Positions 23,250 through 60,938 are shown, numbered from the stretch's first letter. The stretch is DNA of 64,000 nucleotides from an uncultured Gammaproteobacteria bacterium (GCA_963976865.1 CAXBLY010000002.1:22917-86916), one strand, 5' to 3'. Translations and numbers: made by a program. Notes: generated by a model from the sequence alone, not told the origin.

Positions 23250-24881
23250 ATGAATAGTGATGACCGCAAGTTGCAGTTGCCAAATCCACAGGAAGCATTA
23301 AATGAATGCACCAACATTCTGGCGACTGAAGAATTCAAGCGTTCACCGAAAATGTCTTCATTACTTTATTATCTGGTCAACGAAACTCTCGAGGGTCGAT
23401 CTCACTATCTTAAGGCTTACACGATTGCTACCAGTTTGTTCGACAAGGATGAATCCTTCGATCCACAGACAGACCCCTTGATACGTGTTAGTGCAGTTCG
23501 CCTGCGCAGGATGATTCAGCATTATTATCATTCTCAAAAACAACCTGGCCCAGTCAGAATTGAACTAAACAAAGGCAGTTATATTCCTGCATTTTATTAC
23601 ACGGGGAACAAGCAAACCCATCCGGAAAATGAAACACTGCAACACGATAATACCCCACCAATTGAATGCACTTTCCCAAGTCTGGCAGTCTTATACTTCA
23701 AAAATCTGAGCCCTGATCCAGCACATGGCTACATCGCAGATGGATTCACTCAGGAATTACTGACAGAAATATTAAAAGTTAAGTCAATTACGGTTGTCTC
23801 ATATAACGCATTTAATGCCAACGAAAAGCATCATGCCCACCCGAATTACATACCTGAAGTCACCGATGTGCGTTACGTGTTGAGTGGATCACTTCAGGTA
23901 ACCGATCAATCCCTGAGACTTTATGTTCAGCTGGATGATACAAACACTCGTTCAATAATATGGTCAAAGCGTTGCGAGATTGATTTCAAAGTTGATGATT
24001 TTATTTCTGCACAGAGGGAGATTGCCGATCAAGTCGCAAATTATATTGCCCGTCCTTACGGCGCTATCACTCAAAATGAGTTGCGCAATATCCAGCGAAA
24101 AACCACAAAAGACTACAATGCCTACGAACTGCATTTACATTATTATCAGTGGTTAAAAACATTCTCACCGAAAGATCATTCAAAAGCTTACCATTCACTC
24201 AAAGAGTCTTTAAAAATTGACCCTGAATTTTCTGACGCCTGGGCTTCTCTTTCGATAATTTATGTCAACGACTATATATTTTCATATGGCACCGTCACTA
24301 CTGATGAAAGTTTGCTTGATCTCGCCAACCATGCCGCTATTAAGGCAATCAAATCGAACCCTGAAAACCCTCGCGCCAACTATGTGTTGCTATATGGAAA
24401 AATCGCTAAAGACGGAATTAACACTTACCCGGAAGAAGTTGATCTGATTTATCAACACAACAAAAATAATTCACTCATCATTGCAGACATAGGGTTAAGA
24501 CTCGCTATCAGTGGCGACTGGGAACGTGGACTCGAAATAATAGAAGCAGCCATGGTACTAAACCCAGCTCATCCTGATTACTATTATTACCCATTCGTTA
24601 TTAATCATTTCAGGCTTAAAGAATACAAAGAAGCTTTACGCTACGCCAAAATGATTGATATGTCAGAGTTTTATTGGACGCATATCCACTATGCGGCAAT
24701 ATTCTCGGAAACAGGAGACATAGCTAAAGCGAAAGATCACACTCGGATCTTGAAGAAACTATACCCAAATATAGAAAATGAATTTGTAACAGAATTTAAT
24801 AAATGGCACCCCGAGAAAACTCTGGTAGATAAATATATCTCGGCCCTGCAGTTAACAGGATTACAAATACAATCAATCTGA
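23250..24881 (+). CDS. Soluble CadC-like transcriptional regulator: winged-helix (trans_reg_C) DNA-binding domain, TolB-N-like segment and C-terminal TPR region
   Basis: 543 aa with wing/recognition-helix-like IRVSAVRLRRMIQHYY. SLAVLYFKNLSPDPAHGYIADGFTQELLTEILKV matches the conserved TolB-N-like block of CadC-family TPR regulators. The rest is TPR-like. Confidence 0.6.
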   Translation: MNSDDRKLQLPNPQEALNECTNILATEEFKRSPKMSSLLYYLVNETLEGRSHYLKAYTIATSLFDKDESFDPQTDPLIRVSAVRLRRMIQHYYHSQKQPGPVRIELNKGSYIPAFYYTGNKQTHPENETLQHDNTPPIECTFPSLAVLYFKNLSPDPAHGYIADGFTQELLTEILKVKSITVVSYNAFNANEKHHAHPNYIPEVTDVRYVLSGSLQVTDQSLRLYVQLDDTNTRSIIWSKRCEIDFKVDDFISAQREIADQVANYIARPYGAITQNELRNIQRKTTKDYNAYELHLHYYQWLKTFSPKDHSKAYHSLKESLKIDPEFSDAWASLSIIYVNDYIFSYGTVTTDESLLDLANHAAIKAIKSNPENPRANYVLLYGKIAKDGINTYPEEVDLIYQHNKNNSLIIADIGLRLAISGDWERGLEIIEAAMVLNPAHPDYYYYPFVINHFRLKEYKEALRYAKMIDMSEFYWTHIHYAAIFSETGDIAKAKDHTRILKKLYPNIENEFVTEFNKWHPEKTLVDKYISALQLTGLQIQSI

Positions 24882-46935: not shown

Positions 46936-47493
46936 TTGATTGTAAATTTCATGTCAGACGACAAAAATAATCCCGATGACTCTCCAAGTTTTGCCGAGCT
47001 ACTCGATGGCGTAAAAGTATTATCCGATCATGACAAAGTCGTCCATGAAATACCCAAACCCCGCCCCATACCAAAGCAGTCACATCGAGATGAACGAAGA
47101 GTCATGGATGAGTTGCTCGTCAGCCCCAGTGAATATGTCGACATGCAAGCTGGTGATAGTCTTTCATATGTACAGACAGGAATACAAAAACAGGTCTTCC
47201 GCAAACTTAAACGTGGTCAGTACACAATTGAGGCAGAGCTGGATCTACACGGCTTGACCAGACTTGAAGCACAGCAGCAACTCAATGAATTCGTCAATGA
47301 ATGCAGAGAATTTGGGATTCGTTGTGTGCGTATCATTCATGGAAAAGGTTACGGCTCAAGTAATCAGGGCCCGGTGATTAAACCGTTAGTTAACCAGTGG
47401 CTGCAGCGGCGCTCAGAGATTTTGGCATTCTGTTCTGCAAGGCCTGCAGATGGTGGAACTGGCGCTGTGTACGTGTTGATAAAATCTACCTAG
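46936..47493 (+). CDS. Smr-domain protein (SmrB-like)
   Basis: About 183 aa from MSDDKNNP. The C-terminal Smr domain is ELDLHGLTRLEAQQQLNEFV...IRCVRIIHGKGYGS. Confidence 0.7.
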   Translation: MIVNFMSDDKNNPDDSPSFAELLDGVKVLSDHDKVVHEIPKPRPIPKQSHRDERRVMDELLVSPSEYVDMQAGDSLSYVQTGIQKQVFRKLKRGQYTIEAELDLHGLTRLEAQQQLNEFVNECREFGIRCVRIIHGKGYGSSNQGPVIKPLVNQWLQRRSEILAFCSARPADGGTGAVYVLIKST

Positions 47494-47494
47494 A

Positions 47495-48196
47495 TCAGTA
47501 CTCACGTTGCAGTAAAAAGTTTTTGTAATAACGAACATCGTCGCGTATAAGCTCCAGATCTATAGATTGTGTATATTTAATCTGATCAAACGCATCTGAA
47601 AACTGGTCCGCATTCGTTGCTGCCACACCATTTACCGATACAATCAAATCTCCCTTCTGCAAATCAAGTTTTTTGGAGACATTTTCTTCAAGCACACTTT
47701 TAACCTCAAACGCTGCCAGCTGCCCATCTTGCATATGAGGAACCAAATTAAACGTGGTGATGAAATTTTCGGGCTTATCAAAAAATTGTTTGCGGTCTTC
47801 GGTGGATATATTTACAGGAGGTGACCATACATCTTTGCCTGCTGTTGATGTTATATCAATGCTTAAGCTTCTTAATGTCAAGGTAAGCACCTGGTCATTA
47901 CAGTAGAAACTAACGCGGCTACGACGAACATAATCCAGCACACAGCCAGCAACTACGTCACCGACTCGCAATACTAATTCACGATGCTTTTCTTTATCAA
48001 ACAGAACGGCAATTGAGTCAGGGTTATTCAGGACAACCCCGCTTAATTCAAAATTGGCTAATTTAAGTGGCGTACTCCAGACTGCCGGGACCGAAACGGC
48101 AAATGACAGGATCGCAACAGATATCCAGCGCAATCTAGACTGGATAAAAATCGATCGGATAATTAAATGTAAATACTGGAACATCTTCAGATCCAA
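47495..48196 (-). CDS. Membrane-anchored PDZ-domain protein (GspC-like architecture), last gene of the TonB array
   Basis: N-terminal TM helix WISVAILSFAVSVPAVW and a C-terminal PDZ-like block GDLIVSVNGVAATNADQFSDAFDQIK. The start is uncertain because the ORF overlaps the tonB 3' end. Confidence 0.4.
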   Translation of the reverse strand: MDLKMFQYLHLIIRSIFIQSRLRWISVAILSFAVSVPAVWSTPLKLANFELSGVVLNNPDSIAVLFDKEKHRELVLRVGDVVAGCVLDYVRRSRVSFYCNDQVLTLTLRSLSIDITSTAGKDVWSPPVNISTEDRKQFFDKPENFITTFNLVPHMQDGQLAAFEVKSVLEENVSKKLDLQKGDLIVSVNGVAATNADQFSDAFDQIKYTQSIDLELIRDDVRYYKNFLLQREY

Positions 48197-49121
48197 AATT
48201 GATCAGTTTTACGCGTTGAATTAGTTTCTGCTCGAGTTCCGTATCAGCCAGTTCACTACTGACGATATATACTTCAGTCACCTTCCCTGAAGGCGCAATA
48301 GAAATTTTTAGGACGACTTTTCCCTGCAGGTCAGGTGATGATCTAAGTGCCCGATTGTACATACTGAATATCGCACTCTTATTTCTATCAAATGTGATCT
48401 GTATTTTTTCCAGATCACGCTGCGCCGCACGTCCAACACCATTGTCACTGCCTGTGCCTGAACCGCCCTCACCAGCCCCCAGACCAGCAGGTCCAGAAAC
48501 ACGGCTCGCTGTTCTGCCGCCCAGTCCGGTACCCGATACGTCCCGGCTCAATGCAGCAGTATTGATACCACCACTGCCTTTACCTGTGTTCTTTGTTACC
48601 AGAGAACGTTCAATTCTTGAAGCCGAGCCACCACTATTACTGAGTGACCGCTCACCTAAAGTTTGCGAATTTGTTTTTTTACTGATGTCAGCCAATTCAC
48701 TTTGAAATGCCAGCAAACCCGAGGCCGCTGCCACTTCTTTTGCAGATTTTTTAGGTGGCGCAGGTGCTACCTTTTTCTGAGGGACAGGCTTATTAGCTGC
48801 TTTAGCAACTTTCTTTTCCTGTACTTTCTTTATTGCTTTTGGTTTTGTAGTTTTGACTGGTTTGTTAATTTTCTGAGGCACCACTTTTTTAACAATCGGT
48901 GGAGGTGGTGGAAGCTTTTTTTCAATCAGTATTTTTACAACGCGCTTTTCCTGTAATTCCTCAACTGGTTTTTCTTTTTCTGGCAAGGGCAGGAATGGGA
49001 CAATCAGGGTGAGCACAAGACAAGTCATCGTGACACGATTCAATACGCGTCTGAATCTTGTTTTCTCTACGGTTGACACTTCCCATGGGAGGCGCCATGA
49101 ATATACGGCTGCTGCTGTCAT
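48135..49121 (-). CDS. tonB: TonB-family energy transducer; start probably at the internal Met (MTAAAVYSW...)
   Basis: N-terminal TM anchor, a long Pro/Lys-rich spacer (KKLPPPPPIVKKVVPQK...KPVPQKKVAPAPPKK) and a C-terminal TonB domain (VVLKISIAPSGKVTEVYIVSS...FNYPIDF). Confidence 0.75.
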   Translation of the reverse strand: MTAAAVYSWRLPWEVSTVEKTRFRRVLNRVTMTCLVLTLIVPFLPLPEKEKPVEELQEKRVVKILIEKKLPPPPPIVKKVVPQKINKPVKTTKPKAIKKVQEKKVAKAANKPVPQKKVAPAPPKKSAKEVAAASGLLAFQSELADISKKTNSQTLGERSLSNSGGSASRIERSLVTKNTGKGSGGINTAALSRDVSGTGLGGRTASRVSGPAGLGAGEGGSGTGSDNGVGRAAQRDLEKIQITFDRNKSAIFSMYNRALRSSPDLQGKVVLKISIAPSGKVTEVYIVSSELADTELEQKLIQRVKLINFGSEDVPVFTFNYPIDFYPV

Positions 49122-49125
49122 AACT

Positions 49126-49629
49126 CTAACTTGCTTTAGTAGATTCTCTTTGAATAACGGATAATGATATCTGCTCAAAACCAGCACTTGAACAAATCTG
49201 CATGACTTGCTTTATCAGGCTGAATGGCACTTCTTTATCACCCATTATAGTAATTTCCTTTTTCTCACCTTCTTGCACATCTGCCTGAACTTTTAGCATC
49301 TCTTCCTGAAGTGCCATCTGTAGCTTTTGCACATCCGCTTTCTTATTTCCATTGATATCACCTGAACTGACAACTTTCTGACCCTGCAGGCTTATATCTT
49401 CATTATTAAGCATTAATACTACAGAAACACGCGGCTTTTTCTCAGCCATAGACTGCGGCATTTCAATGCCTTTAGCATTTGGTAGTACAGTCGGGTCCGA
49501 CGCATTCACCAGTAAGAAAAATACCAAAATGGTAAATATATCCATCAGCGAGACAATATTAAATGGTGCCTGCTTTTTAGCGCGATCATGATTGCGCTGC
49601 ATTCTTTGTACTGTTTTTTTGCCACGCAT
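49126..49629 (-). CDS. exbD: ExbD/TolR-family biopolymer transport protein (copy 2)
   Basis: 167 aa, single TM (FNIVSLMDIFTILVFFLL), ExbD fold. Confidence 0.8.
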   Translation of the reverse strand: MRGKKTVQRMQRNHDRAKKQAPFNIVSLMDIFTILVFFLLVNASDPTVLPNAKGIEMPQSMAEKKPRVSVVLMLNNEDISLQGQKVVSSGDINGNKKADVQKLQMALQEEMLKVQADVQEGEKKEITIMGDKEVPFSLIKQVMQICSSAGFEQISLSVIQRESTKAS

Positions 49630-49631
49630 AA

Positions 49632-50138
49632 TTATCTTCCTGCTGTATACACTGGAGCATCACCCACAGCGATATCAGGAAACAGATCTGCAAATACTGT
49701 TTCCCCATCCTTAACTACTTCTGCCGCCCTGACTGAGTCCATAATCTGAACAAGCACATCGTAGGTAATGTCTGGTTCTAACAGTATTGTTGCATTTTGA
49801 ATATCCTGATACCTGGTTTTCAGGCCTTGTAAATATTCGTTAAGTGCTGTTAATTCGTAGCCTTGGTCGCCGTTTTTAATTGATTTGAGTACGCCCTTGT
49901 TACGATCCTGAACACGCAATGAATTCTCGCGTACAACAATTTCAAGCTCTAATGTTTTAACGTTATTTTTGACAACATCAGATTTGGCTGGCAAATCCAG
50001 TTCCAAAATACTTATTTTAGAAAACACCGCTGTAATCAGCAGGAAAGGAACCAGAATTACCATCAGGTTCATGAAAGCAGTAATACTTAGCTCTGCTTCT
50101 TCCCTGTTGCGTCTTCTACTATGGCGTCTATATATCAT
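49632..50138 (-). CDS. exbD: ExbD/TolR-family biopolymer transport protein (copy 1)
   Basis: 168 aa, single TM (ITAFMNLMVILVPFLLI). Confidence 0.8.
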   Translation of the reverse strand: MIYRRHSRRRNREEAELSITAFMNLMVILVPFLLITAVFSKISILELDLPAKSDVVKNNVKTLELEIVVRENSLRVQDRNKGVLKSIKNGDQGYELTALNEYLQGLKTRYQDIQNATILLEPDITYDVLVQIMDSVRAAEVVKDGETVFADLFPDIAVGDAPVYTAGR

Positions 50139-50155
50139 AATGACTTATATCAATT

Positions 50156-50812
50156 TTATGCTTCAGCCTGTGCCTGCTTTCGCGCACTGACTGCAATGGT
50201 ATTCAGTACTTTGACTGAGGCCATCTCAAGGCTATCAACAATTTCTGTAGTCTTGGTCTGTAACCAGGAATGCAGAAGCAATAATGGAATACCTACCATC
50301 AGTCCAAATGCGGTTGTATTCATCGCAACCGAGATACTTGATGAGAGCAAATCTGCTTTTTCTGCAGGGCTTGCCGCGGATATTGCTGTAAATGCATCGA
50401 TTAGACCGATAATTGTTCCAAGCAGACCTAACAGGGTTGCAACATTTGCAAAAGTCGCCAGGTAATGAGTCCGCTTTTCCAGTTTAGGAACCACTTCCAT
50501 TAAACCTTCTTCCATTGCCGTTTCAATATCATCTCTACGGCGTGACGTTTGCGCACTTGCAATGCCATAGCCCATAATTCGGCTGATAGCACATTTGGAT
50601 TTTTCAGCAAAATTCATTGCTTCATTCATATTGCCACTGGCCAGTACTGTCTGAATTTTTTTCCAGGCAATCTGATTTTTAATTCGTGTGGAAGAAAGAT
50701 AAATATATCTTTCAATGGCGATCGCCAAACCTATGGCTAACACAAACACGATTGGGATCATGAAAATACCGCCGGACTGGAAGAATGTTACAAAAGACTC
50801 ATACATATTCAT
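50156..50812 (-). CDS. exbB: MotA/TolQ/ExbB proton-channel protein
   Basis: 218 aa, three TM helices, conserved C-terminal GLMVGIPLLLLHSWLQ. Confidence 0.85.
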   Translation of the reverse strand: MNMYESFVTFFQSGGIFMIPIVFVLAIGLAIAIERYIYLSSTRIKNQIAWKKIQTVLASGNMNEAMNFAEKSKCAISRIMGYGIASAQTSRRRDDIETAMEEGLMEVVPKLEKRTHYLATFANVATLLGLLGTIIGLIDAFTAISAASPAEKADLLSSSISVAMNTTAFGLMVGIPLLLLHSWLQTKTTEIVDSLEMASVKVLNTIAVSARKQAQAEA

Positions 50813-50842
50813 TGGGACTCCCTATTACTTAATATCGTAAAT

Positions 50843-51103
50843 TTATTTTCTACTTTGCTGATAGAAATCTACTTTGCGTTGAAAAACTTCCTTATCTACC
50901 GGCTGTATATATTCGTTAATATGTCGCTGCAGAAAAAAGTCGCCCTCACCTGGCAGTGATGCTTTCCATGGAACAATCACCAGACTTTTGGGTAATTCTT
51001 TATTACCAATAATTGAAATACCATTAAGCTCCTGCACATTCTGATCTGCAAATGACATACTTTGCATGAATATAAAGATCATAATTAGCAAGAAGATTTT
51101 CAC
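50843..51103 (-). CDS. Small secreted hypothetical protein (86 aa)
   Basis: Signal peptide MKIFLLIMIFIFMQSMSFA. Sits between the TPR lipoprotein gene and exbB. Confidence 0.4.
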   Translation of the reverse strand: MKIFLLIMIFIFMQSMSFADQNVQELNGISIIGNKELPKSLVIVPWKASLPGEGDFFLQRHINEYIQPVDKEVFQRKVDFYQQSRK

Positions 51104-51119
51104 TATCCCAACTCCATCA

Positions 51120-51752
51120 CTATTTTATTTGACTCTCTCTACGTGATAAATCACTTATCCAGGCTATGACTTGTTTATCGTCATTTTTTTCTATTTCTTG
51201 ATATGCCTGATAATGTGATTTTGCACAAACTATTTTCTGTAAATACAGGTCACATAAAATAGCTAAATTTAGATGAGCGTTTGCGTAATTCGGATACTCG
51301 GCCAGAGCATTTTTATACATACTCTGCGCCTCCTCAAAAGCGCCTTTTTCACGTTTAATAATGCCTGCCTGATTTAATGCATAAGGATTCTTTGGATTCA
51401 GCTTAACGGCAGTTTCAATAGCATGATCGGCTTTATCAATTTCGCCCAGTTTTCGGTAAGCTATCGCGATATTCACCCAGGGGCCTGAAGCACGCGGTTC
51501 TTTTTCTGCAACCTGATTGAATATTTCGATGGCCTGCAAATAATCTTCTGCAGACATTGCTTCCACACCATATCCAAACTGCTGTTCAACAGACGCAGAA
51601 ACTTTATAATTCTGCTTTACAACTATTCTGGAACTTTCATCTTTATTGTTGGCAACTGAAGATACATTACTGGGCGCATTTGCACATGCCGTTAACAGCA
51701 ATACAATGAAACCTGAAATAATATATTTAGTATTAATGAATTGTCTCCACAT
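51120..51752 (-). CDS. TPR-repeat lipoprotein
   Basis: 210 aa, lipobox LLTAC, TPR units (AIAYRKLGEIDKADHAIETAVKLNPKNPYALNQAG...). Confidence 0.6.
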   Translation of the reverse strand: MWRQFINTKYIISGFIVLLLTACANAPSNVSSVANNKDESSRIVVKQNYKVSASVEQQFGYGVEAMSAEDYLQAIEIFNQVAEKEPRASGPWVNIAIAYRKLGEIDKADHAIETAVKLNPKNPYALNQAGIIKREKGAFEEAQSMYKNALAEYPNYANAHLNLAILCDLYLQKIVCAKSHYQAYQEIEKNDDKQVIAWISDLSRRESQIK

Positions 51753-54549
51753 AAGCTTCTGATTTTTCTGTTCTCGCGTATCGCGCTGGTACTAATTCAC
51801 CTAATTCACGCAGGCTTTCTTTAATCCATTTGTTATACACACCATCCACTGTTCTGCGTGCATTCAGTTCAAACAGGTCAATCGCCTGCTCCTCAAACGG
51901 GAATGCCTGTTCTTCCAGTAAAAACTCATACTGCGCCAGTTCTTCTTGAGAAAGTCCGGGAGGCCGATCAGACTGCATTAATGCGCGACTAAAGTCGTAG
52001 TAAATCAAGCCTGAGTAGTAGGTTGCTGACGTAGTCACCTCTTCTACCTTGTATGCACCTGCCTGTTCAAACGCTAGCAATGCTCTTTCCATGAGCGTTT
52101 TCTTCGCTTTCAGACTTGTTTTCAATGGGATTTTCAAGCGGCTGGCATTAAATACCGTGTATTTAGGAATTGCCAACTGAAGTGATGCATTAGCAGCAAT
52201 AAATTTCATCCTGGCAGTACTGGTAGAACCTGCTACAGCCTCAGTCTTGATGATATCTTCCCGCCATTGCTTGACTAACTGGGTCTCATTTCTTGCTAGA
52301 TACAAATCTACAAGTGATTGACGAACTTCCAATGCAGCTTCATAAGGCTTGGGAAATCTCTTGATATAATTCTTGTAGATTTCAATAGCACGATAATCAT
52401 CTTTTTCTTTTGCATATAAATCTGCTGCCACAAGACTTGAAGTACGCTGGGTTTCTTTATCATTTGCATCATCCAGACTAATCCTTTCGTATTCTTGCGC
52501 AGCCAGTATATTGCGTTGATCTTTTTCGTATACCAGTGCTAATTTATGCGTAATTGAGGACTGTTCTTCATGATCAGGGAAACGGCTTCTGAAATCTTCC
52601 AGCACAACCGCGGCACGTGACCATTGCTCTGACTTAAGCAGTAATGTTGCTGCATCATATTGTGCTGCCGGTCGAATATCAGAACCAGGAACAATTCGGC
52701 CAACTCGCAAATAATGCTCTACCGCTATATCTGTTTCACCTGCCAACTGACTGGCTTCTCCCTGTTTGTAAATAGAAGCGGCTAGTTTTTCTTCAAGATT
52801 TTTACGCTCTTTAGCATCATTTCCAACTAATAGAATTGCCTGTTGGTAAGCAACCTCTGAACCAGGAAAGTCATTTAGCTCGAAAGAAGAGTGCGCCTTA
52901 ACAGTCCAGGCACTTTTACGAAGTTTGATATCGCTATCAGCAAACTTTTCAACCAGCAAACTTGATGCCTGAATAGCCCTGCTGTAATCTTTAATTGAGA
53001 ATAGATCTTCAGCTGCTTTTGTTAACGCCACAGATGCTTGTGGATGTAACGGGAATTTATTGGCAAATTTAAATGTACTATCAATCTGCCTGGATTTAAT
53101 TTGTGCATTAACACTTTTGTCTTTAGTTGCAGTCAACCAGTCATTAAACGCAACCAGAGCTGCATAACCAGCCTCTGAATCTTTTGCATGCGCCGGATAG
53201 TGATATGCTGTCTTTTCAAATTCAACAACTGCATTTTCATATTCTTTAGTTTCAAACCAGATATCTGCCAGCAGGAAATTCATATGCGCCGAATGCGGAT
53301 CTTCGGGAAACGATGCTATGTAGGCCTGATACCAGCGGGTTGCTTCAATATAGTCTGGCTTCTTCTTGGATTTCTGGGCAACGGCATGATAGTACTTGGC
53401 TAAATCGATGATATTGGATTTCAGATAATCAACGACATGTGACGCATCTTCAATCTGGTTATGTACCCAGTATTCAGAGTTAATATGATAATTTTCAACA
53501 AACTGTTTTTTTGCATTCAGTACTTCAGACGGGAATTTACCTTTCTTGAACGCATCAATGGCCCTGATCTGGAAATCTGGCGCCTGCGCATTGAACTGAT
53601 TATGCTTAACAAACTCTCTAAATGTATTGGCAGCATCACTATAGCGCTGCTTTTCCAGATACTGCACCCCCAGCCGATCATAGATCAAGGCTTCGTATGG
53701 TCGCCTTCCGTGACCATTAAAATAACCCGATATTTCACTGGCACCGCCCAAATAACCATAACTTAATCCCAATGCGCGCAGAGAGTCGTCTAACAACTCT
53801 TTTTCTGGACGCGTCAGCGCTTCTATATCCTTATCAACATCATTCATAATCATGGTATCGAGAAGCGCAATAAACGAATGCAATCCGACATCATAATCAA
53901 GCCTCTTGAATTGCGTCCAACCCTGTTTATAAAGTGCATGCCGATAGAATCGACTGTCCTTGCCCAGCTCGATGACTTCAGCATAAGCCAGTTCAGCTCG
54001 CTTGTATTTCTTATCTACAAACAGTGTCTCGCCACGGCGAAACTGCGCTTCCACGTAATAATCAGAATCCGGAAACTTTTCAATTAATCTGTCTAGACTA
54101 TCCAGCATTTTCTCGCGCTGATCTGCCGCTTCATATGCCCGTGATAATTGATACAGGACAACATCGTTTAATTGATAGTCTGATTGCTCTAGCAACAAGT
54201 ATTCATATAACTCGATAGTCTCTTTATAATTTATATCAGTGGTTGTGAATTTTGATGCAACTTCAGGACTTGATACATCGACTGCCTGCAGGTCTTCATT
54301 TTCCTCTAGCCTTAAATCACCCAACCTGCGTATTACTTCTGGCGAATCTTTTTCCTGATCTTCATCAACCAGCAACTCACGATAGCTATGTATGGCTTTC
54401 TTACGGCTACTCTCAACGGGAATGTCGTTTTCCACGTCGACTTTCTTACGCTCAAGGTCTTCAATCGTATAATAGGACCCACCGCCCCAGCCACAAGCCT
54501 GTATCATTAGAATCAGCGCATAAACGCTGCAATAACGTATATGCTTCAT
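51733..54549 (-). CDS. Large TPR-repeat lipoprotein (938 aa)
   Basis: Lipobox MIQACG, then multiple TPR-like helical repeats throughout. Confidence 0.6.
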   Translation of the reverse strand: MKHIRYCSVYALILMIQACGWGGGSYYTIEDLERKKVDVENDIPVESSRKKAIHSYRELLVDEDQEKDSPEVIRRLGDLRLEENEDLQAVDVSSPEVASKFTTTDINYKETIELYEYLLLEQSDYQLNDVVLYQLSRAYEAADQREKMLDSLDRLIEKFPDSDYYVEAQFRRGETLFVDKKYKRAELAYAEVIELGKDSRFYRHALYKQGWTQFKRLDYDVGLHSFIALLDTMIMNDVDKDIEALTRPEKELLDDSLRALGLSYGYLGGASEISGYFNGHGRRPYEALIYDRLGVQYLEKQRYSDAANTFREFVKHNQFNAQAPDFQIRAIDAFKKGKFPSEVLNAKKQFVENYHINSEYWVHNQIEDASHVVDYLKSNIIDLAKYYHAVAQKSKKKPDYIEATRWYQAYIASFPEDPHSAHMNFLLADIWFETKEYENAVVEFEKTAYHYPAHAKDSEAGYAALVAFNDWLTATKDKSVNAQIKSRQIDSTFKFANKFPLHPQASVALTKAAEDLFSIKDYSRAIQASSLLVEKFADSDIKLRKSAWTVKAHSSFELNDFPGSEVAYQQAILLVGNDAKERKNLEEKLAASIYKQGEASQLAGETDIAVEHYLRVGRIVPGSDIRPAAQYDAATLLLKSEQWSRAAVVLEDFRSRFPDHEEQSSITHKLALVYEKDQRNILAAQEYERISLDDANDKETQRTSSLVAADLYAKEKDDYRAIEIYKNYIKRFPKPYEAALEVRQSLVDLYLARNETQLVKQWREDIIKTEAVAGSTSTARMKFIAANASLQLAIPKYTVFNASRLKIPLKTSLKAKKTLMERALLAFEQAGAYKVEEVTTSATYYSGLIYYDFSRALMQSDRPPGLSQEELAQYEFLLEEQAFPFEEQAIDLFELNARRTVDGVYNKWIKESLRELGELVPARYARTEKSEAYVETIH

Positions 54550-56438
54550 TCGTCTTCTCCAATAATTTCCGGATTATCAATGGTTGCCTGATCATAAGCC
54601 TGTGCCAATGCCAGCTTGGCTTGCGCACGATAACTCTTCATCACCAGCTTGCGTTTAACCAGTTCACGCACAGCAAGCTTTTCGATCAGCGTGCTTTGTT
54701 TTTCATAAGCAACAACTAAGCGTGGAAGTGCGTCTTCAATTCTCTGTCTGATTTCGTCTATGCGATACTGGAATCCACCAAAGCCAAAACTTGCCACCTG
54801 ATCAACGGTGCCAATAGATTTTTCAACGTCAGCCATATTAGTAATTTCTTCTTCAATGGCTCTGAGCTCTGTTTTAGCTCTCCATTGTCTTTCTGCATAT
54901 TGTTGTGAAACTTCCCAGTAAATTCGACCTTTAAGCATTTCAAGTCGCTTCAAGCTGTCTGAATACTGTTTGTTTGATGGATCCTGTTCACTTAATTTTG
55001 TTAACTTATTATAAAGTCGATCAATGCGTTTGATTTTCAGCAGTTCATCATCATCGACAAATGCCAGTACATTTTGATTCGATTCTGCATCATTATATGC
55101 TTCAGAAAGCTCAGCATATTTTGCCTTAAGACGCTTCAATTGCGACCTCTTCAGCGTTTTGCCTGCTGCAGGCGCTGTTTGTTCATAGCGTGCTTTACGC
55201 GTATCAAGCATGGTGTTGTATACATGAATGTTGTCTAGCCAGTTCTGAAGATTTTCCTGAAGAAAAATCAGGTCACGGAAATTTTTAACAGCTTCGTGGA
55301 ACTGATGATCAGCCATCAGTTCCGACAGGTATCGCATTTCCGGTACTGAAGGAATACTTTTTAACGACCAGAACCAGCCTAATAGTGGTTCTTCTTTAGT
55401 TTTGCCAATTAACGCGGTGATAAATTTACCTTGCTCGATCGAAGCAATTGATTCCGTTAATTTGCCAGTTTCAATCTGATATGAATTGATTGCATCTTCA
55501 TAGGACTTTACGGCGCGACCATTCAAACCAAGTTGCCCATACCCGTAAGCGATCGCCAGTAATCCTTCCTGGACTGGTGTCGTTGTTAATCTGCGATCTT
55601 TTAATTCCAGCCAGGGAGTTAAAGCTTTCTCATAATGCCCCTGTTCACTGTGCGCCCACCCCATGGTCAACAGGGAAATATCTGAATAAAGACCACTTAG
55701 GCGAACATCTTCAAGATAGCCTTGTGCTTTTTCCGGTTCATTTTTTAATAATGCCAGCCCTGCTACGAGATTGGACTTATCTCTTAGTGTCAATTCATTT
55801 GAATTGCGTATCTTTTGTTTGCTAGCGTTTTTTAAACTACTGACTCCATCTTCCACATTACCATTTCTAATATGAGCAATTCCAAGATTATGCAATGCAT
55901 ATGGTTTATGTGATTTTGGCGGCTTCCATCCATCAAGTACTGCAATCGCTTTCTCGGGCTGACCTATATCCAGGTATACCTGACTTTTTAATAATTTTAC
56001 ATCGCTGAAAACATCTTCATGGACCGCACCTTTAATGTTTTCCACGTATTGCGCTGCGTTCGCCAGATAACCACGCTGATAAGAAATTTTTGCCAGATAA
56101 TAATAAGCTCTGTTTTTAACAGCATCATCGGAGTTTTCTTCAAGAAGTCTAGCAAATATTTTTCCGGCTTCATTATGCATTCCATAGGACAGCTCTATCC
56201 CGCCTAATAGCAACTCGTCATCAGGGCGGTGATTAGCCACTCGATTAAGTTGCTGCGCTGCCAGTAAATGAGTTATTGAAGTAAAATAATCATCCTGAAA
56301 AAAATGAAACAGCACTTCGCCATAGTGAAGATCCTTGACAGTATTGATCACTATCTTTTCTTCAGCATACACTGACGCATTCGCAAACAAACAGGCGACT
56401 ACGAAATATTTAATCAGTCTGGACAACATGGTTATCAT
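54546..56438 (-). CDS. Secreted TPR plus coiled-coil protein (630 aa)
   Basis: Signal peptide (FVVACLFANASVYA), N-terminal TPR region, C-terminal long heptad-rich region. Confidence 0.55.
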   Translation of the reverse strand: MITMLSRLIKYFVVACLFANASVYAEEKIVINTVKDLHYGEVLFHFFQDDYFTSITHLLAAQQLNRVANHRPDDELLLGGIELSYGMHNEAGKIFARLLEENSDDAVKNRAYYYLAKISYQRGYLANAAQYVENIKGAVHEDVFSDVKLLKSQVYLDIGQPEKAIAVLDGWKPPKSHKPYALHNLGIAHIRNGNVEDGVSSLKNASKQKIRNSNELTLRDKSNLVAGLALLKNEPEKAQGYLEDVRLSGLYSDISLLTMGWAHSEQGHYEKALTPWLELKDRRLTTTPVQEGLLAIAYGYGQLGLNGRAVKSYEDAINSYQIETGKLTESIASIEQGKFITALIGKTKEEPLLGWFWSLKSIPSVPEMRYLSELMADHQFHEAVKNFRDLIFLQENLQNWLDNIHVYNTMLDTRKARYEQTAPAAGKTLKRSQLKRLKAKYAELSEAYNDAESNQNVLAFVDDDELLKIKRIDRLYNKLTKLSEQDPSNKQYSDSLKRLEMLKGRIYWEVSQQYAERQWRAKTELRAIEEEITNMADVEKSIGTVDQVASFGFGGFQYRIDEIRQRIEDALPRLVVAYEKQSTLIEKLAVRELVKRKLVMKSYRAQAKLALAQAYDQATIDNPEIIGEDE

Positions 56439-57039: not shown

Positions 57040-58176
57040 TCAATATCTCACCGAAAAGAACAGTTGCAATACTGCCGCATCAAATGAATATGGATCATCG
57101 GTAATGACAGAAAGGTCTTCTATCCCGCTGTAGTCGTCATATTGCGAATCAATATATTCTGCAGAAAAATTCAACGTGCCATTATTGAATCTTGAATATT
57201 CATCAAAAATCCTATAGCTGACTTTGGCGCCAATTGAGTAACTATCAAAAGTGCTTAATTCTTTATCTCTGGCCATGAAATTTCGCGCGACCGAAAAATT
57301 ATTACTATAAAAGTCTGCTGCATCCTGAGTGTAATAACGTAAATACAAATCGGTCAGCCAACGATCACCAATATATTGCGAATAAGTGAAATCGACTGTA
57401 TGAGCAACTATGTCCCAGGTGTCTCTAAAATATCGATAACCCAGAGAAGTTGCAGCTTTGAAATCCCAGTACTTGGTCACGCTGAGTGCCGTTGCCTGGC
57501 TAGACCTTGTACCCGGATACACTTCGGAACCCAAACCCTGCGGAACATTCCCAATAATGACAAACCGGTAGGGATTATTGAGGTAACCATCTTCAAGCGT
57601 TGCCTCATAAGAGAGATCTGCTCTGATTTTACTGGTTAATACCTGTGATAAAGAAACACGATATTGAGATCGTTTTAAATCTTCCTCAAATTCAGGCGCA
57701 TCAACACGCTTGATAGTATCCCAACCATGAGTAAAGCCCAGGCCTATGGTAGTTAAATCACCAAACATGTCATGAGAAATATCAAAACCTGCTGTATTGG
57801 CCTCATAATCATTCTCATCACTATAAGTATAGAATGCGCCGATTACTGTATTATCATGCAGGTAGTTACCACCCAGCGTAAATTCATCTCTGTCTTCAGT
57901 ATATTTGCTTGCGCCTGCCAGCACGTCGGGCGACGCGCCAGTAATATTGTCCTGATGATATTTTCCGTACACTGAAAATTTTTGTGCAAAGCTTTTGCGT
58001 ACCAGTACAGTGACACCATCAACCTCTACACCACCACCATCGTAATAATGGTATTGAACATCTGCCCTGTCTTCAGGTAACTGGGCAGCAAATGCTGGTT
58101 GCCTGATCAGTGATACAGCAGCAATGGCGCTTATAATTAGCGCGTATATAGCAAATTGTAATTTAGTTACAGCCAC
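57040..58176 (-). CDS. DUF3570-like outer-membrane beta-barrel protein; probable GTG start at 58176
   Basis: The tracked ATG ORF (57040..58326) would overlap the DUF4266 gene by 164 nt. A GTG at 58176 preceded by AAGGAA gives MAVTKLQFAIYALIISAIAAVSLIRQPAFAA, a clean signal peptide. The body has alternating beta-strand patterns with C-terminal ...LQLFFSVRY. DUF3570 assignment from memory only. Confidence 0.5.
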   Translation of the reverse strand: MAVTKLQFAIYALIISAIAAVSLIRQPAFAAQLPEDRADVQYHYYDGGGVEVDGVTVLVRKSFAQKFSVYGKYHQDNITGASPDVLAGASKYTEDRDEFTLGGNYLHDNTVIGAFYTYSDENDYEANTAGFDISHDMFGDLTTIGLGFTHGWDTIKRVDAPEFEEDLKRSQYRVSLSQVLTSKIRADLSYEATLEDGYLNNPYRFVIIGNVPQGLGSEVYPGTRSSQATALSVTKYWDFKAATSLGYRYFRDTWDIVAHTVDFTYSQYIGDRWLTDLYLRYYTQDAADFYSNNFSVARNFMARDKELSTFDSYSIGAKVSYRIFDEYSRFNNGTLNFSAEYIDSQYDDYSGIEDLSVITDDPYSFDAAVLQLFFSVRY

Positions 58177-58393
58177 AACCACTTCCTTGTGCCGATGCTG
58201 CGCCTTTAGCACCTTCTCTGGTTTCATAGGTGTGTTGTCTGAACGAGCTAAACACTGCATCACGATCCGGATCCATAATAGGGTCTGCCAAATGCTCTCG
58301 TTCATATGGTGCCACCCACGGTTCAATCGGCTTTATACTGCATGCAGTTAAGCCAATAACAATGAACATTAACAATAAAGATTTAATTATCAT
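58163..58393 (-). CDS. DUF4266-like small lipoprotein
   Basis: 76 aa, lipobox GLTAC, C-terminal GSGCGCN. DUF4266/DUF3570 pairing recalled from memory. Confidence 0.5.
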   Translation of the reverse strand: MIIKSLLLMFIVIGLTACSIKPIEPWVAPYEREHLADPIMDPDRDAVFSSFRQHTYETREGAKGAASAQGSGCGCN

Positions 58394-58396
58394 GAT

Positions 58397-58912
58397 TTAT
58401 TCATATTTCAATTGCTTGATCTGCTGCTGATAAAGACTCAGGTAACTTTCTTTATAACCACGGTGCATATATCGAATCTCGCCGTTTCTATCGACAATAA
58501 TAGTCATGGGCATAGCGTCAATATCGTATAGTTTGCTTACCTGTTTGGACTGGTCGAATAATATTGGGAAATCAATCCCCAGTTTTTTTGCCAGTCTTAT
58601 GGCTTTTTCCGGTTCTTCATCAATGTTGACTGCGAGCAGTTCAAAATCATATTCGTCATGCAGTCCCTTTAGCTCAGAAAGTTTTGGCAATTCCTGCTGA
58701 CAAGGACCACACCATGATGCCCAGAAATTAATAAGCACAACTTTGCCACGATATTCACTAAGTTTTCGGTTATCACCCTGATCACTCTTTAAAGTAAAAT
58801 CAGGTGCTGTCTTGCCGATCAGTTCATTTCTGGCAACTGAAGTACCCACGCAAATCAGACACAGGAGTCCTGTAATAACAATTAAAATATTTTTAATTTC
58901 TATACTTTTCAT
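58397..58912 (-). CDS. TlpA/ResA/CcmG-like periplasmic thiol:disulfide oxidoreductase
   Basis: 171 aa, signal anchor, active site WASWCGPC, AhpC/TSA-TlpA fold. Confidence 0.8.
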   Translation of the reverse strand: MKSIEIKNILIVITGLLCLICVGTSVARNELIGKTAPDFTLKSDQGDNRKLSEYRGKVVLINFWASWCGPCQQELPKLSELKGLHDEYDFELLAVNIDEEPEKAIRLAKKLGIDFPILFDQSKQVSKLYDIDAMPMTIIVDRNGEIRYMHRGYKESYLSLYQQQIKQLKYE

Positions 58913-58932
58913 GACGCCTCCACATACATAAT

Positions 58933-59571
58933 TTAGAAGAACACGCCCAGGTTGAATGAGGCTTCCAGGTTATGTGTGAATTCATTTTCTCCCAACAGAT
59001 CTGTTTCATAGATATAATCTCTAAAATCAAATCGTGCTGATAACCAGTCCGTTGGCAGAATTTTCAACCCTATTCCAAAGTGGTATGCAAACTCGTCCTC
59101 TTCAATGAACTCAACATTACCAACACCTGCGAGTACATAAAAAGTACTACTCAACGCGATGTCACGCCCCAGAAACACTTCGCCCGGCAATATGTTGTAC
59201 CCTATTGATAATGCGTAATATTCAACGTCCTGCGTTTCCTGGGGGAACAATGGCAGACCTAGCCGACGAAATGACTCATCTTTAACCTCAGATTCGCCGT
59301 ATGTCGCTTCAACAAAGAAGTCTTCGGTGACGTGATACGCTGCACGAATTCCAATCACCGGTTCAGACCCAAAATCCTCGACATCCAGTACTCCATAGAA
59401 TGCTGAGATCTCGAAGTCTTCAGTATCAATTTTCGGCACCACGATATCTCTACGATGAATATCTGGCTTAATCACCTGTTCCTGTTCTTGCTGATCTTCA
59501 TCTTCCTGCGCAAACACCATGCCGGTGTTGATGCCTATCAGCATGATGAGAAATATTGCAATCCATTTCAT
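58933..59571 (-). CDS. Outer-membrane beta-barrel protein (OmpW/OmpA-barrel-like)
   Basis: 212 aa, signal peptide, acidic linker, amphipathic beta strands, C-terminal ...NLGVFF. Confidence 0.5.
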   Translation of the reverse strand: MKWIAIFLIMLIGINTGMVFAQEDEDQQEQEQVIKPDIHRRDIVVPKIDTEDFEISAFYGVLDVEDFGSEPVIGIRAAYHVTEDFFVEATYGESEVKDESFRRLGLPLFPQETQDVEYYALSIGYNILPGEVFLGRDIALSSTFYVLAGVGNVEFIEEDEFAYHFGIGLKILPTDWLSARFDFRDYIYETDLLGENEFTHNLEASFNLGVFF

Positions 59572-59590
59572 AATTTATCCCTTCCCTTCT

Positions 59591-60376
59591 TTAAAAGAAA
59601 AATGCCACGCCGCCTGTTATTTCATCAAAATCATCGTTTTCATCATCGTTTGATAAAACAACGTAGCGACGATAATCAGCACGTATAAAAAAACGTTCAG
59701 TCAAATAAAATCTTGCACCGATCCCTGCATTGGCAAGATCAGAATCTGTCTCTTCGGCATTTACCAGTGTTGCTCTTGGAGTATTCTCAAAACGACCATA
59801 ACCAATTGTAAAATTTGGACTGACACGCCATTTCGGAAATGGTGTTGAGACAAGATTGAGGCTGTAAACATCAGAGCTGGAAAAGTCACCAGCAACTTCA
59901 CCATAGGAGAATTCCAGCATGATATTTTCTGTAAATTTGTAACCCAGACGTGCGGTAATAAACGGATCACCTGAGAAATCACCTCCAGACACACCAAACT
60001 CGATTCGTCTTCTCAAGTAGTCACTGACTAATACATCACGAAAACTCTTGTTCGAGCCTGCCTCAGTCAACGTACGCTCCATTTGTGAACGTTCAACCCA
60101 ACCGGTTTTATTGTGATCTGTTCTGACTTTAAACCAGTCTGTTTTACGCTTGATTATTTCAACCCATTCGTGACGATCCACCACATGGAAAATGGGAAAT
60201 CCACGTCCTGGACCTGTATGCATTTCAATATATGGATCAGCAACCTGTACGCTTTGATACTCTTTATCTGCGTAGGCGACCTGATTGACTGTGATGAACA
60301 TCACAAAGGCAAATATCACATACTTTAAGTGAGTTATTGTTGAGATTTGAGTAAAGCTTTCCATGCCTGATTTCAT
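59591..60376 (-). CDS. SH3b-like domain fused to an outer-membrane beta-barrel domain
   Basis: 261 aa, signal peptide. DPYIEMHTGPGRGFPIFHVVDRHEWVEIIKRKTDWFKVRTDHNKTGWVE is bacterial-SH3-like. The C-terminal barrel ends ...GGVAFFF. Confidence 0.5.
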   Translation of the reverse strand: MKSGMESFTQISTITHLKYVIFAFVMFITVNQVAYADKEYQSVQVADPYIEMHTGPGRGFPIFHVVDRHEWVEIIKRKTDWFKVRTDHNKTGWVERSQMERTLTEAGSNKSFRDVLVSDYLRRRIEFGVSGGDFSGDPFITARLGYKFTENIMLEFSYGEVAGDFSSSDVYSLNLVSTPFPKWRVSPNFTIGYGRFENTPRATLVNAEETDSDLANAGIGARFYLTERFFIRADYRRYVVLSNDDENDDFDEITGGVAFFF

Positions 60377-60386
60377 TTCAAATTAT

Positions 60387-60911
60387 TTATGGGGCGCAGC
60401 TTGCCAGATCAGCAGCTGATGGACCTGTTCCTGTTAGGACAGTACAATTTACCGGACACGAACCATTGTTTGTTCCTGCCCAATTAGCAATTTCTTGATA
60501 ACAAGTCGCCGCTGTACTTGCAAAAATATCGCCACCACCATGTGGCCCTACGGATGCGACTCCGGAATCACCAACTAAGGGTTCGGCAAGTAATTTGCTC
60601 TGCGAGACACTGGCAGGATTCACAAAGGCTTGTGCAGAATTAAAATTAAATGCCAGGTCAGCAGCAGTTACCGGGTTTTGAATCAGGATAAATGCACCAC
60701 CTGATCCACCAGAAGCATGACAGGCGCTCGCTGCGCAGCTGACATTTGATGCACCTATTGGCCCTTGCAAGATAGGACTAATACACAAATCAAAAATGTT
60801 GCTACATAAATCTGCAACACTACCGGGATCATCCTCGGTAGAAACACTGTCGCATCCAGTTAAAATGATTAGCGCCGCAGCAAGCGACGCAAACCGCCGC
60901 TTCTTGTTCAC
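60387..60911 (-). CDS. Gly/Ala/Ser-rich Cys-containing lipoprotein (174 aa)
   Basis: Lipobox ILTGC and 10 Cys, including SCAASACH, a C-x4-CH arrangement of the kind used by some c3-type cytochromes. Confidence 0.45.
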   Translation of the reverse strand: MNKKRRFASLAAALIILTGCDSVSTEDDPGSVADLCSNIFDLCISPILQGPIGASNVSCAASACHASGGSGGAFILIQNPVTAADLAFNFNSAQAFVNPASVSQSKLLAEPLVGDSGVASVGPHGGGDIFASTAATCYQEIANWAGTNNGSCPVNCTVLTGTGPSAADLASCAP

Positions 60912-60938
60912 GGTAACTTCTCCGTAACTATTTAATAT

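Follow-up and report, generated by a model that had tools for sequence, protein, structure and literature searches.

A TolQR-like motor with a tetratricopeptide repeat scaffold in an uncultured gammaproteobacterium, a probable standalone Agl-Glt-type core complex

Results

Here, we describe a unit of nine conserved genes in a 64-kb stretch of DNA (64,000 nt; the window) from an uncultured Gammaproteobacteria bacterium (GCA_963976865.1, CAXBLY010000002.1:22917-86916). The unit lies on the minus strand, and coordinates are counted from the first letter of the window. It encodes an ExbB/TolQ-type proton channel subunit, two ExbD/TolR paralogues, a TonB-like transducer, three proteins with tetratricopeptide repeats (TPR) and two small secreted proteins, and it is followed in the window clade by a gene for a PDZ protein (Table 1). 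A first-pass annotation had listed the motor, TPR and PDZ genes; we found all of them on the minus strand where it had placed them, in agreement with the Pfam and NCBIfam profile searches used for domain assignment. Its parts list was incomplete, because it overlooked the conserved genes for an 86-aa and a 179-aa secreted protein. The latter, which ends 27 nt upstream of the 630-aa protein gene, is the ninth conserved gene of the unit. Packing is tight, with overlaps of 4 and 20 nt between the TPR genes and other gaps of 2-30 nt. For the gene encoding the TonB-like protein, the longest open reading frame (ORF) spans 49187-48135; the start is most likely ATG 49121, which lies 4 nt past the ExbD stop and gives 328 aa, in line with the length of relatives (303-338 aa).

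Table 1. Genes of the unit and of its clade-specific surroundings in the window
Feature	Position	Strand	Evidence and remarks
179-aa secreted protein (u190/u179)	57005-56466	-	conserved upstream member; 75/80 loci
630-aa periplasmic TPR protein with helical C-terminal half, GltC-like position	56438-54546	-	TPR matches; 77/80 loci
938-aa TPR protein, GltD-like central scaffold (candidate)	54549-51733	-	lipobox MIQAC; 80/80 loci
210-aa TPR outer-membrane lipoprotein, GltE-like	51752-51120	-	lipobox LLTAC; 74/80 loci
86-aa secreted protein	51103-50843	-	between GltE-like gene and exbB; 73/80 loci
ExbB/TolQ-type proton channel subunit, 218 aa, AglR-like	50812-50156	-	PF01618, 99 bits; 69/80 loci
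ExbD/TolR paralogue 1, 168 aa, AglQ-like position	50138-49632	-	PF02472; 66/80 loci
ExbD/TolR paralogue 2, 167 aa, AglS-like position	49629-49126	-	PF02472; 64/80 loci
TonB/TolA-like transducer, 328 aa, GltG-like	49121-48135	-	AgmX/PglI-type C-terminal domain; 61/80 loci
GspC-like membrane-anchored PDZ protein	47495-48184 (start ATG 48184 or TTG 48133)	-	clade-specific accessory
TlpA/ResA-like periplasmic thioredoxin	58397-58912	-	WCGPC motif; frequent upstream neighbour; 60/80 loci
Clade-specific same-strand run	57040-63914, on past window end (ApbE, L081 8833-9807)	-	Pfam/NCBIfam
991-aa protein	gene start ATG 63914	-	HZS_alpha middle domain, three CxxCH, trace of TolB-like propeller
174-aa lipoprotein	within 57040-63914	-	CAASACH
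Outer-membrane beta-barrel, 261 aa	59591-60376	-	N-terminal SH3 domain
Outer-membrane beta-barrel, 212 aa	58933-59571	-	TIGR04565 'OMP_myx_plus', 145 bits, cutoff 60
DUF3570 protein	within 57040-63914	-	TGAS and AGAS motifs

Using an alignment of the 938-aa protein family as query, a scan of one genome per species gave at least 568 confirmed loci, of which 80 were kept and labelled L001, L002 and so on. The presence of each gene was scored by tblastn of every window protein against these 80 loci, to which all counts out of 80 refer. The block is colinear in 80/80 loci, and most cases of a missing gene fall at contig ends. Because the same colinear block recurs in all loci kept, the gene arrangement is far beyond chance. 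The genome search also answers the question, raised in the first-pass annotation, of whether the TPR partners are generic neighbours: they are strictly syntenic, in 74-80 of the loci. Carrier lineages include Steroidobacterales (Steroidobacteraceae), Woeseiaceae, Acidiferrobacterales, Thiohalobacter, Microbulbifer, Oceanospirillum, Thiotrichaceae and Chromatiaceae, and among the loci is that of the cultured Peristeroidobacter agariperforans. A tblastn search of plasmids with the 938-aa protein gave no match.

The TonB-like protein consists of a short N terminus, one transmembrane helix, a Pro/Lys-rich spacer, linker motifs and a C-terminal domain. Its C terminus passes the model for the AgmX/PglI C-terminal domain (NF033768; 61.5 bits, cutoff 40) and fails the Pfam TonB_C model (PF03544; 19.7 versus 24.6 bits), and it was because of this combination that a core complex with a GltG-type transducer, as in the Agl-Glt machinery of Myxococcus, came into consideration. 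The GltG model NF033760 aligns to the linker and C-terminal domain (E = 1e-13, model positions 375-628); the protein also aligns to the myxobacterial GltJ model. All 30 sampled family members match both NF033768 and NF033760, and NCBI names some family members 'AgmX/PglI C-terminal domain-containing protein'. In an AlphaFold 2 model, the N-terminal transmembrane helix is confidently predicted, the spacer is long and disordered, and the C-terminal domain (predicted local distance difference test score of ~80) has the order helix-helix-strand-strand-helix-strand, a predicted TonB-like fold; a sequence search of the PDB with this protein gave no meaningful match. In the family alignment, the Pro-rich spacer is separated from the C-terminal domain by a linker with the conserved motifs GLLA..LADLR, ERSL and SGGINTA. 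In the published Myxococcus model, the equivalent segment of GltG wraps around GltD; by analogy, we infer that the linker may contact the GltD-like 938-aa protein.

The motor part of the unit consists of one PF01618 gene and two PF02472 genes, which are kept in 64-69 of the 80 loci and correspond to the one-TolQ/two-TolR composition of the Agl-Glt core complex. The 218-aa ExbB/TolQ-type protein has only 26% identity to the canonical ExbB of the same genome. The two ExbD paralogues align to each other over the transmembrane helix only. In the 167-aa paralogue, the transmembrane Asp30 is invariant (64/64 members); in the 168-aa paralogue, Asn takes the place of the usual transmembrane Asp at residue 24, a column that holds Asp in 39 and Asn in 27 family members. 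We suggest that one proton-carrying ExbD subunit may be enough for the motor. The published Myxococcus model has a heteromeric AglR5-AglQ-AglS stator, and the Asp/Asn split together with the divergence of the paralogues is compatible with an AglQ/AglS heterodimer.

The first-pass annotation referred to three TPR lipoproteins. This description holds for the 210-aa protein, in which the lipobox is conserved (48/56 members), and for the 938-aa protein in the window clade only (18/73); in the 630-aa protein, the signal peptide is of type I and a lipobox is not conserved (7/74). The 938-aa protein belongs to a family that is full length at ~930-960 aa and has 1,753 matches. The NCBIfam GltE model (NF033758) gives 45 bits (cutoff 225) on the 210-aa protein, amid many other TPR model matches. 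PrsT (27-44 bits versus 312), PilW (48 versus 154) and BamD (68 versus 81) were all under cutoff, and we rejected an assignment to any of these TPR lipoproteins; LapB, NlpI and other TPR equivalogs scored far under cutoff.

Both small proteins carry type I signal peptides, and neither had a match in Pfam or NCBIfam. In the 179-aa protein, the signal peptide is followed by a long helix and a transthyretin/TssJ-like beta-sandwich. In the 86-aa protein, it is followed by the strand motif GN+ELPKxLxIVPWK and a C-terminal helix, and where the gene is found it is always between the GltE-like gene and exbB. In Myxococcus, gltF sits right after gltE, as the 86-aa protein gene sits after the gltE-like gene here, and in the Myxococcus model a strand of GltF pairs with the C-terminal domain of GltG. 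By analogy, the strand-plus-helix layout of the 86-aa protein appears to resemble that of GltF.

A unit of this kind has been described before. Luciano et al. (2011; PMC3169522) define the Agl-Glt 'core complex' as aglR, aglQ, aglS, gltC, gltD, gltE and gltG and report that these genes cluster in one region of the genome in Geobacter, a betaproteobacterium and several Gammaproteobacteria, with an additional gene without a Myxococcales homologue inside the cluster. For Marinobacter aquaeolei, Table S3 gives Maqu_1595 (GltG, 321 aa), Maqu_1596 (AglS, 162 aa), Maqu_1597 (AglQ, 176 aa), Maqu_1598 (AglR, 221 aa), Maqu_1600 (GltE, 162 aa), Maqu_1601 (GltD, 939 aa) and Maqu_1602 (GltC, 550 aa), the tag Maqu_1599 being skipped, with no length. 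Cellvibrio, Saccharophagus, Teredinibacter, Shewanella frigidimarina, Hahella, Thioalkalivibrio and Methylibium have the same pattern, examples being the clusters CJA_3312-3319, Sde_2954-2961, Sfri_1223-1230 and Tgr7_0536 onward, and the homologues are 550-692 aa for GltC (MXAN_2541), 933-1016 aa for GltD (MXAN_4870) and 162-263 aa for GltE (MXAN_4869). The window proteins, with lengths of 328/167/168/218/[86]/210/938/630 aa, follow the same order; the 86-aa protein gene occupies the position of the skipped tag (one tag; two in Hahella), as an additional gene inside the cluster, and the TonB-like protein represents the GltG/PglI-type transducer (NF033768, NF033760). Because gene order and lengths equal those of the clusters of Luciano et al., the unit is of an already described kind, which the first-pass annotation did not recognise. 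We compared the unit with Table S3 by architecture, i.e., order and lengths, and not by alignment to those accessions; the GltG-type domain alone was compared directly with myxobacterial models, and the other assignments combine architecture with the published table.

In the TonB-like protein and its surroundings, we also looked for signs of a classical Ton system. The first-pass annotation had compared the unit to TonB2-type systems and had found no gene for a TonB-dependent receptor. The latter observation extends to the whole 64-kb window, to the next 10 kb, which were read from identical metagenome contigs (L081), and to the surroundings of the unit in the relatives examined. ORFs of at least 600 aa in the window encode only RecQ, RapA, the two large TPR proteins and the HZS_alpha/haem protein and no receptor, and the 10 kb past the window end hold ApbE, MoeA, kdsB, lpxK, msbA and a canonical exbB-exbD pair. 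The ~900-aa ORFs downstream of the unit in relatives were ruled out as receptors, being phosphoenolpyruvate (PEP) carboxylases. Thus, no receptor gene that could be co-transcribed with the unit lies in the 10 kb past the window end, and the TPR genes are not generic neighbours without synteny, the two findings by which the first-pass annotation proposed to judge its suggestion that the motor energises something other than classical receptor import. With no receptor nearby, the TonB_C model missed and the TPR genes syntenic, this suggestion is reasonable, and a classical role in energising TonB-dependent receptors is unlikely for this motor.

In the same genome, the canonical short exbB-exbD pair lies beside msbA-lpxK-kdsB, ~10 kb past the window end (L081 146-1173); as judged from these genes, the organism has a separate conventional energiser. 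The unit shares with Ton and with Vibrio TonB2 the ExbB and ExbD families and a Pro-rich TonB-like protein with a TonB-fold C terminus and, with TonB2, the association with a TPR protein. However, compared with Vibrio TonB2 (TtpB-TtpC-ExbB2-ExbD2-TonB2-TtpD), it has two ExbD proteins, and its TPR genes are upstream and of another family. Moreover, the comparison to TonB2 in the first-pass annotation did not stand, as Pfam searches of all genes in the run detected neither TtpB/DUF3450 nor a second large MotA/TolQ/ExbB protein (TtpC). A classical TonB2- or TonB3-like system that serves receptors encoded elsewhere and has its TPR proteins as TtpD-like stabilisers is therefore highly improbable: receptors and TtpB- or TtpC-type proteins are absent from the regions named, the C terminus of the TonB-like protein falls under the Pfam threshold for TonB_C and over that for AgmX/PglI, its transmembrane helix has no His, the genome holds a separate canonical exbB-exbD pair and the eight-gene architecture equals that of the Glt core in the published clusters.

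The resemblance to Tol-Pal (TolQRA-TolB-Pal-CpoB) is closer in some respects, with a proton channel of the same superfamily, a long-spacer transducer with a TolA/TonB fold and TPR repeats of YbgF/CpoB type. The 218-aa protein is marginally closer to TolQ than to ExbB, both by model (TIGR02796, 59 bits, versus 42 bits for the ExbB model) and by nearest solved structures (TolQ, 33 bits, then ExbB, 29 bits), and the 938-aa protein narrowly passes the YbgF-type TPR model TIGR02795 (91.2 bits versus a cutoff of 90.1), and is named 'TolA-binding protein' by the Joint Genome Institute. These observations would fit a second system of the Tol-Pal kind, in which a giant CpoB/YbgF-like TPR protein joins TolQ, two TolR proteins and a TolA-like protein and which functions in outer-membrane tethering or invagination and envelope integrity and not in cargo transport. 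However, equivalog scores are far under cutoff (TolQ, 59 versus 221; TolR, 34 versus 127), TolB and Pal genes are in the unit of none of the loci, TolA models match 3/30 family members of the TonB-like protein, and these weakly, and the pair of non-identical TolR-like subunits, the GltC-like and GltE-like partners and the sizes of the TPR proteins (210, 630 and 938 aa) have no Tol-Pal counterpart. We therefore regard a second Tol-Pal-like system as quite unlikely, and note that it overlaps in part with an Agl-Glt-type core complex, Agl-Glt itself being Tol-like.

At the downstream end of the unit, the PDZ gene is confined to few lineages. The first-pass annotation described it as overlapping the 3' end of the TonB-like gene by about 60 nt. 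This value arises from the start of the longest ORF, TTG 48196, and did not hold; an overlap of 50 nt is still possible with ATG 48184. Public gene calls on identical sequence differ: with ATG 48184, the protein has 229 aa and the overlap is 50 nt, and with TTG 48133, it has 212 aa and the genes do not overlap. The relative L002 shows the same overlap, a conservation that could be imposed by the reading frame of the TonB-like gene. A place for the PDZ protein among the core partners is not supported, as tblastn detected it in no other of the 80 loci than L002, L003 and L084, which belong to the window's own clade, and the candidates for a homologue after the TonB-like gene in L034, L064 and other lineages were unrelated. 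It aligns over residues 39-222 to the GspC model TIGR01713 (59.9 bits, cutoff 101.6) and matches OutC and PulC (E = 0.0017); no gsp genes were found in the window region examined (Pfam/NCBIfam searches of the run and of large ORFs). By sequence, the protein thus resembles GspC, with an HR-like region and a PDZ domain, but is not filed as GspC because it scores under the TIGR01713 cutoff and there is no gsp operon. A gene for a Smr/SmrA-like endonuclease (46936-47497, plus strand) is convergent with the PDZ gene; its stop at 47493 is 1 nt from the PDZ gene stop (47495), leaving no space for an intergenic terminator.

Outside the window clade, the TonB-like gene is the end of the unit and is followed by genes for PEP carboxylase, inositol monophosphatase or a dehydrogenase or by a lineage-specific 116-aa ORF. 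This ORF (116-119 aa), conserved and without a Pfam match, lies 6 nt past the TonB-like gene in ~15 Steroidobacteraceae loci (L014 16787-17137) and stands where the window clade has its PDZ gene. At the other end of the block in Steroidobacterales (L009 1675-5180, L085 2318-5646), genes for an extracytoplasmic function (ECF) sigma factor (PF07638) and a Ser/Thr kinase-TPR protein lie divergently, just upstream of the thioredoxin/179-aa/core block; the two may be a dedicated regulator pair of the block. Elsewhere in the window, a 543-aa ORF at 23250-24881 (plus strand) had no Pfam family at E <= 1e-5.

Upstream of the 179-aa protein gene, the window clade carries a run of genes for redox proteins and outer-membrane barrels. 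The thioredoxin, which matches Pfam AhpC-TSA and Redoxin and, under their cutoffs, the ResA and TlpA models, is the only one of these upstream genes that travels with the core in most lineages, lying directly upstream of the 179-aa protein gene where present. The whole upstream run is colinear only in L001-L004, L034, L036 and L084 among the 80 loci. Méheust et al. (2021; PMC8238504) described clusters of ApbE, DUF3570 and thioredoxin genes as a flavinylation-associated extracytosolic redox system, and by its gene content the upstream run looks like such a system joined to a multihaem protein. The barrel pair upstream of the gltC-like gene recalls, by analogy, the order gltB-gltA-gltC in Myxococcus, and the TIGR04565 model that the 212-aa barrel passes is centred on myxobacteria. 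In ~25 Steroidobacteraceae loci (L006-L079, position ~1-70, minus strand), an HZS_alpha-type homologue of the 991-aa protein with 29-39% identity is encoded on the strand opposite to the core, 7-10 kb upstream of it. This recurrent neighbour hints at a looser but repeated linkage to the core.

This arrangement raises the possibility that the motor of the window clade belongs specifically to the upstream redox operon and supplies the energy to assemble, gate or position an electron-transfer module of the outer membrane. Such a role would account for the unbroken same-strand run that extends between ApbE and the PDZ gene, has no gap larger than ~200 nt and is kept in L002-L004, L034 and L084, and would fit the attachment of a TlpA-like thioredoxin to the core in 60/80 loci, the presence of an HZS_alpha-like gene within 10 kb in 31/80 loci and the resemblance of the TGAS and AGAS motifs of the DUF3570 protein to the flavinylated sites of PMC8238504. 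However, most lineages have the core without DUF3570, ApbE or barrels within 10 kb, and no conserved Cys is evident in the core proteins as a thioredoxin target. Also, the run is a gene arrangement: a promoter/terminator scan stayed at chance level, with counts equal to those in shuffled controls, and is uninformative on operon limits. Accordingly, we consider a dedicated redox role rather improbable. We also regard it as doubtful that this marine clade expanded the Glt core independently of Myxococcus, with barrels, a GspC-like PDZ protein and ApbE, DUF3570, multihaem and thioredoxin proteins, into a proton-driven machine for an outer-membrane redox or secretion complex.

Discussion

Based on gene order, protein lengths and the GltG-type transducer, we conclude that the locus is probably a standalone Agl-Glt-type core complex, a trans-envelope force-transducing machine that is related to, and distinct from, Tol-Pal and Ton. 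Several observations weigh against this conclusion. The putative homology to AglR/Q/S and GltC/D/E rests on architecture and the published table. Full-length equivalog scores are far under cutoff for GltE (45 versus 225) and GltG (51 versus 650), and Myxococcus GltG has a long N-terminal FHA region that its gammaproteobacterial homologues lack. TPR models are promiscuous on the unit, those for PilW, PrsT, BamD and YbgF matching as well. The TonB C-terminal model TIGR01352 is missed narrowly (26.5 versus a cutoff of 27.1), which leaves room for contact with a TonB box. Finally, in the portions available, PMC3169522, PMC3858216 and bioRxiv 2020.07.22.216333 report no experimentally established function of the core complex outside Myxococcus, and a search for experiments on the role of this complex in Gammaproteobacteria found none in the literature available.

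Compared with the gammaproteobacterial core complex in the available portions of PMC3169522, the unit agrees in its eight genes, in their order and almost exactly in the protein lengths, and these genes likewise form one operon-like cluster in hosts that do not glide. It adds the 179-aa protein gene and, usually, the TlpA-like thioredoxin, neither of which was found in these portions or in Table S3; its AglQ-like paralogue has lost the transmembrane Asp; and additional genes of the window clade encode the GspC-like PDZ protein, the pair of outer-membrane barrels and an ApbE/DUF3570/haem module. The core complex would have at least nine subunits, including the 179-aa beta-sandwich protein, plus a partner thioredoxin. 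The Agl-Glt (gliding) and Agl-Nfs (spore coat) machines of Myxococcus xanthus likewise combine a TolQR-like motor, in which the two TolR-like subunits differ from each other, with a TonB-like transducer bearing an AgmX/PglI domain and with a TPR scaffold of the GltD, GltE and GltC types. However, the window unit is without GltH, GltI, GltJ, GltK, CglB, AglZ and MglA partners; its GltG-like protein, with 328 aa, is half the size of Myxococcus GltG (a model of ~650 positions) and is without the long N-terminal region bearing FHA domains; and its genes form one cluster, whereas those of Myxococcus lie in three. In line with these differences, gliding is not expected of the gammaproteobacterial core complex in the available discussion of PMC3169522.

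The Agl-Glt core complex belongs to the 5:2 proton-motor superfamily, together with Tol, Ton, Mot and GldLM, and is regarded as ancestral to the gliding and spore-coat machines of Myxococcus. Based on homology to TolQR/ExbBD structures and on the published AlphaFold model of Myxococcus Agl-Glt, from which stoichiometry, contacts and output are extrapolated, we propose that the machine would function as follows. A pentamer of the 218-aa ExbB/TolQ-like protein would house a heterodimer of the divergent 167-aa and 168-aa ExbD proteins in a 5:2-type proton channel, in which only the 167-aa protein keeps the invariant proton-carrying Asp. Proton flow would perform conformational work on the single-pass GltG-like protein, the Pro/Lys-rich spacer of which would cross the periplasm. 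Its linker and TonB-fold C-terminal domain would dock not on the TonB box of a receptor but on a TPR scaffold on the periplasmic side of the outer membrane, consisting of the 938-aa GltD-like and 210-aa GltE-like lipoproteins and the 630-aa GltC-like protein, with the 86-aa and 179-aa secreted proteins as further conserved subunits. The output would be mechanical work on an outer-membrane-associated cargo, i.e., transport, secretion or positioning, and not the removal of a receptor plug. Roles suggested for the core complex are that of a 'basal transport machinery' (Wartel et al. 2013, PMC3858216) and protein secretion (bioRxiv 2020.07.22.216333).

The organism is uncultured, and the locus does not by itself reveal the function of the machine. 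Altogether, our analyses indicate that uncultured Gammaproteobacteria of the sea and of soil carry the system abundantly, with at least 568 species-level genomes, and its conserved parts list gains a secreted 179-aa beta-sandwich protein and an attached thioredoxin. Over the 2011 description, the additions are this ninth conserved gene, the thioredoxin, the Asp/Asn split within one ExbD paralogue and the clade-specific GspC-like, barrel and redox genes. In one clade, outer-membrane barrels, a GspC-like protein and what appears to be an extracytosolic redox module are linked to the system and provide concrete leads to the cargo.

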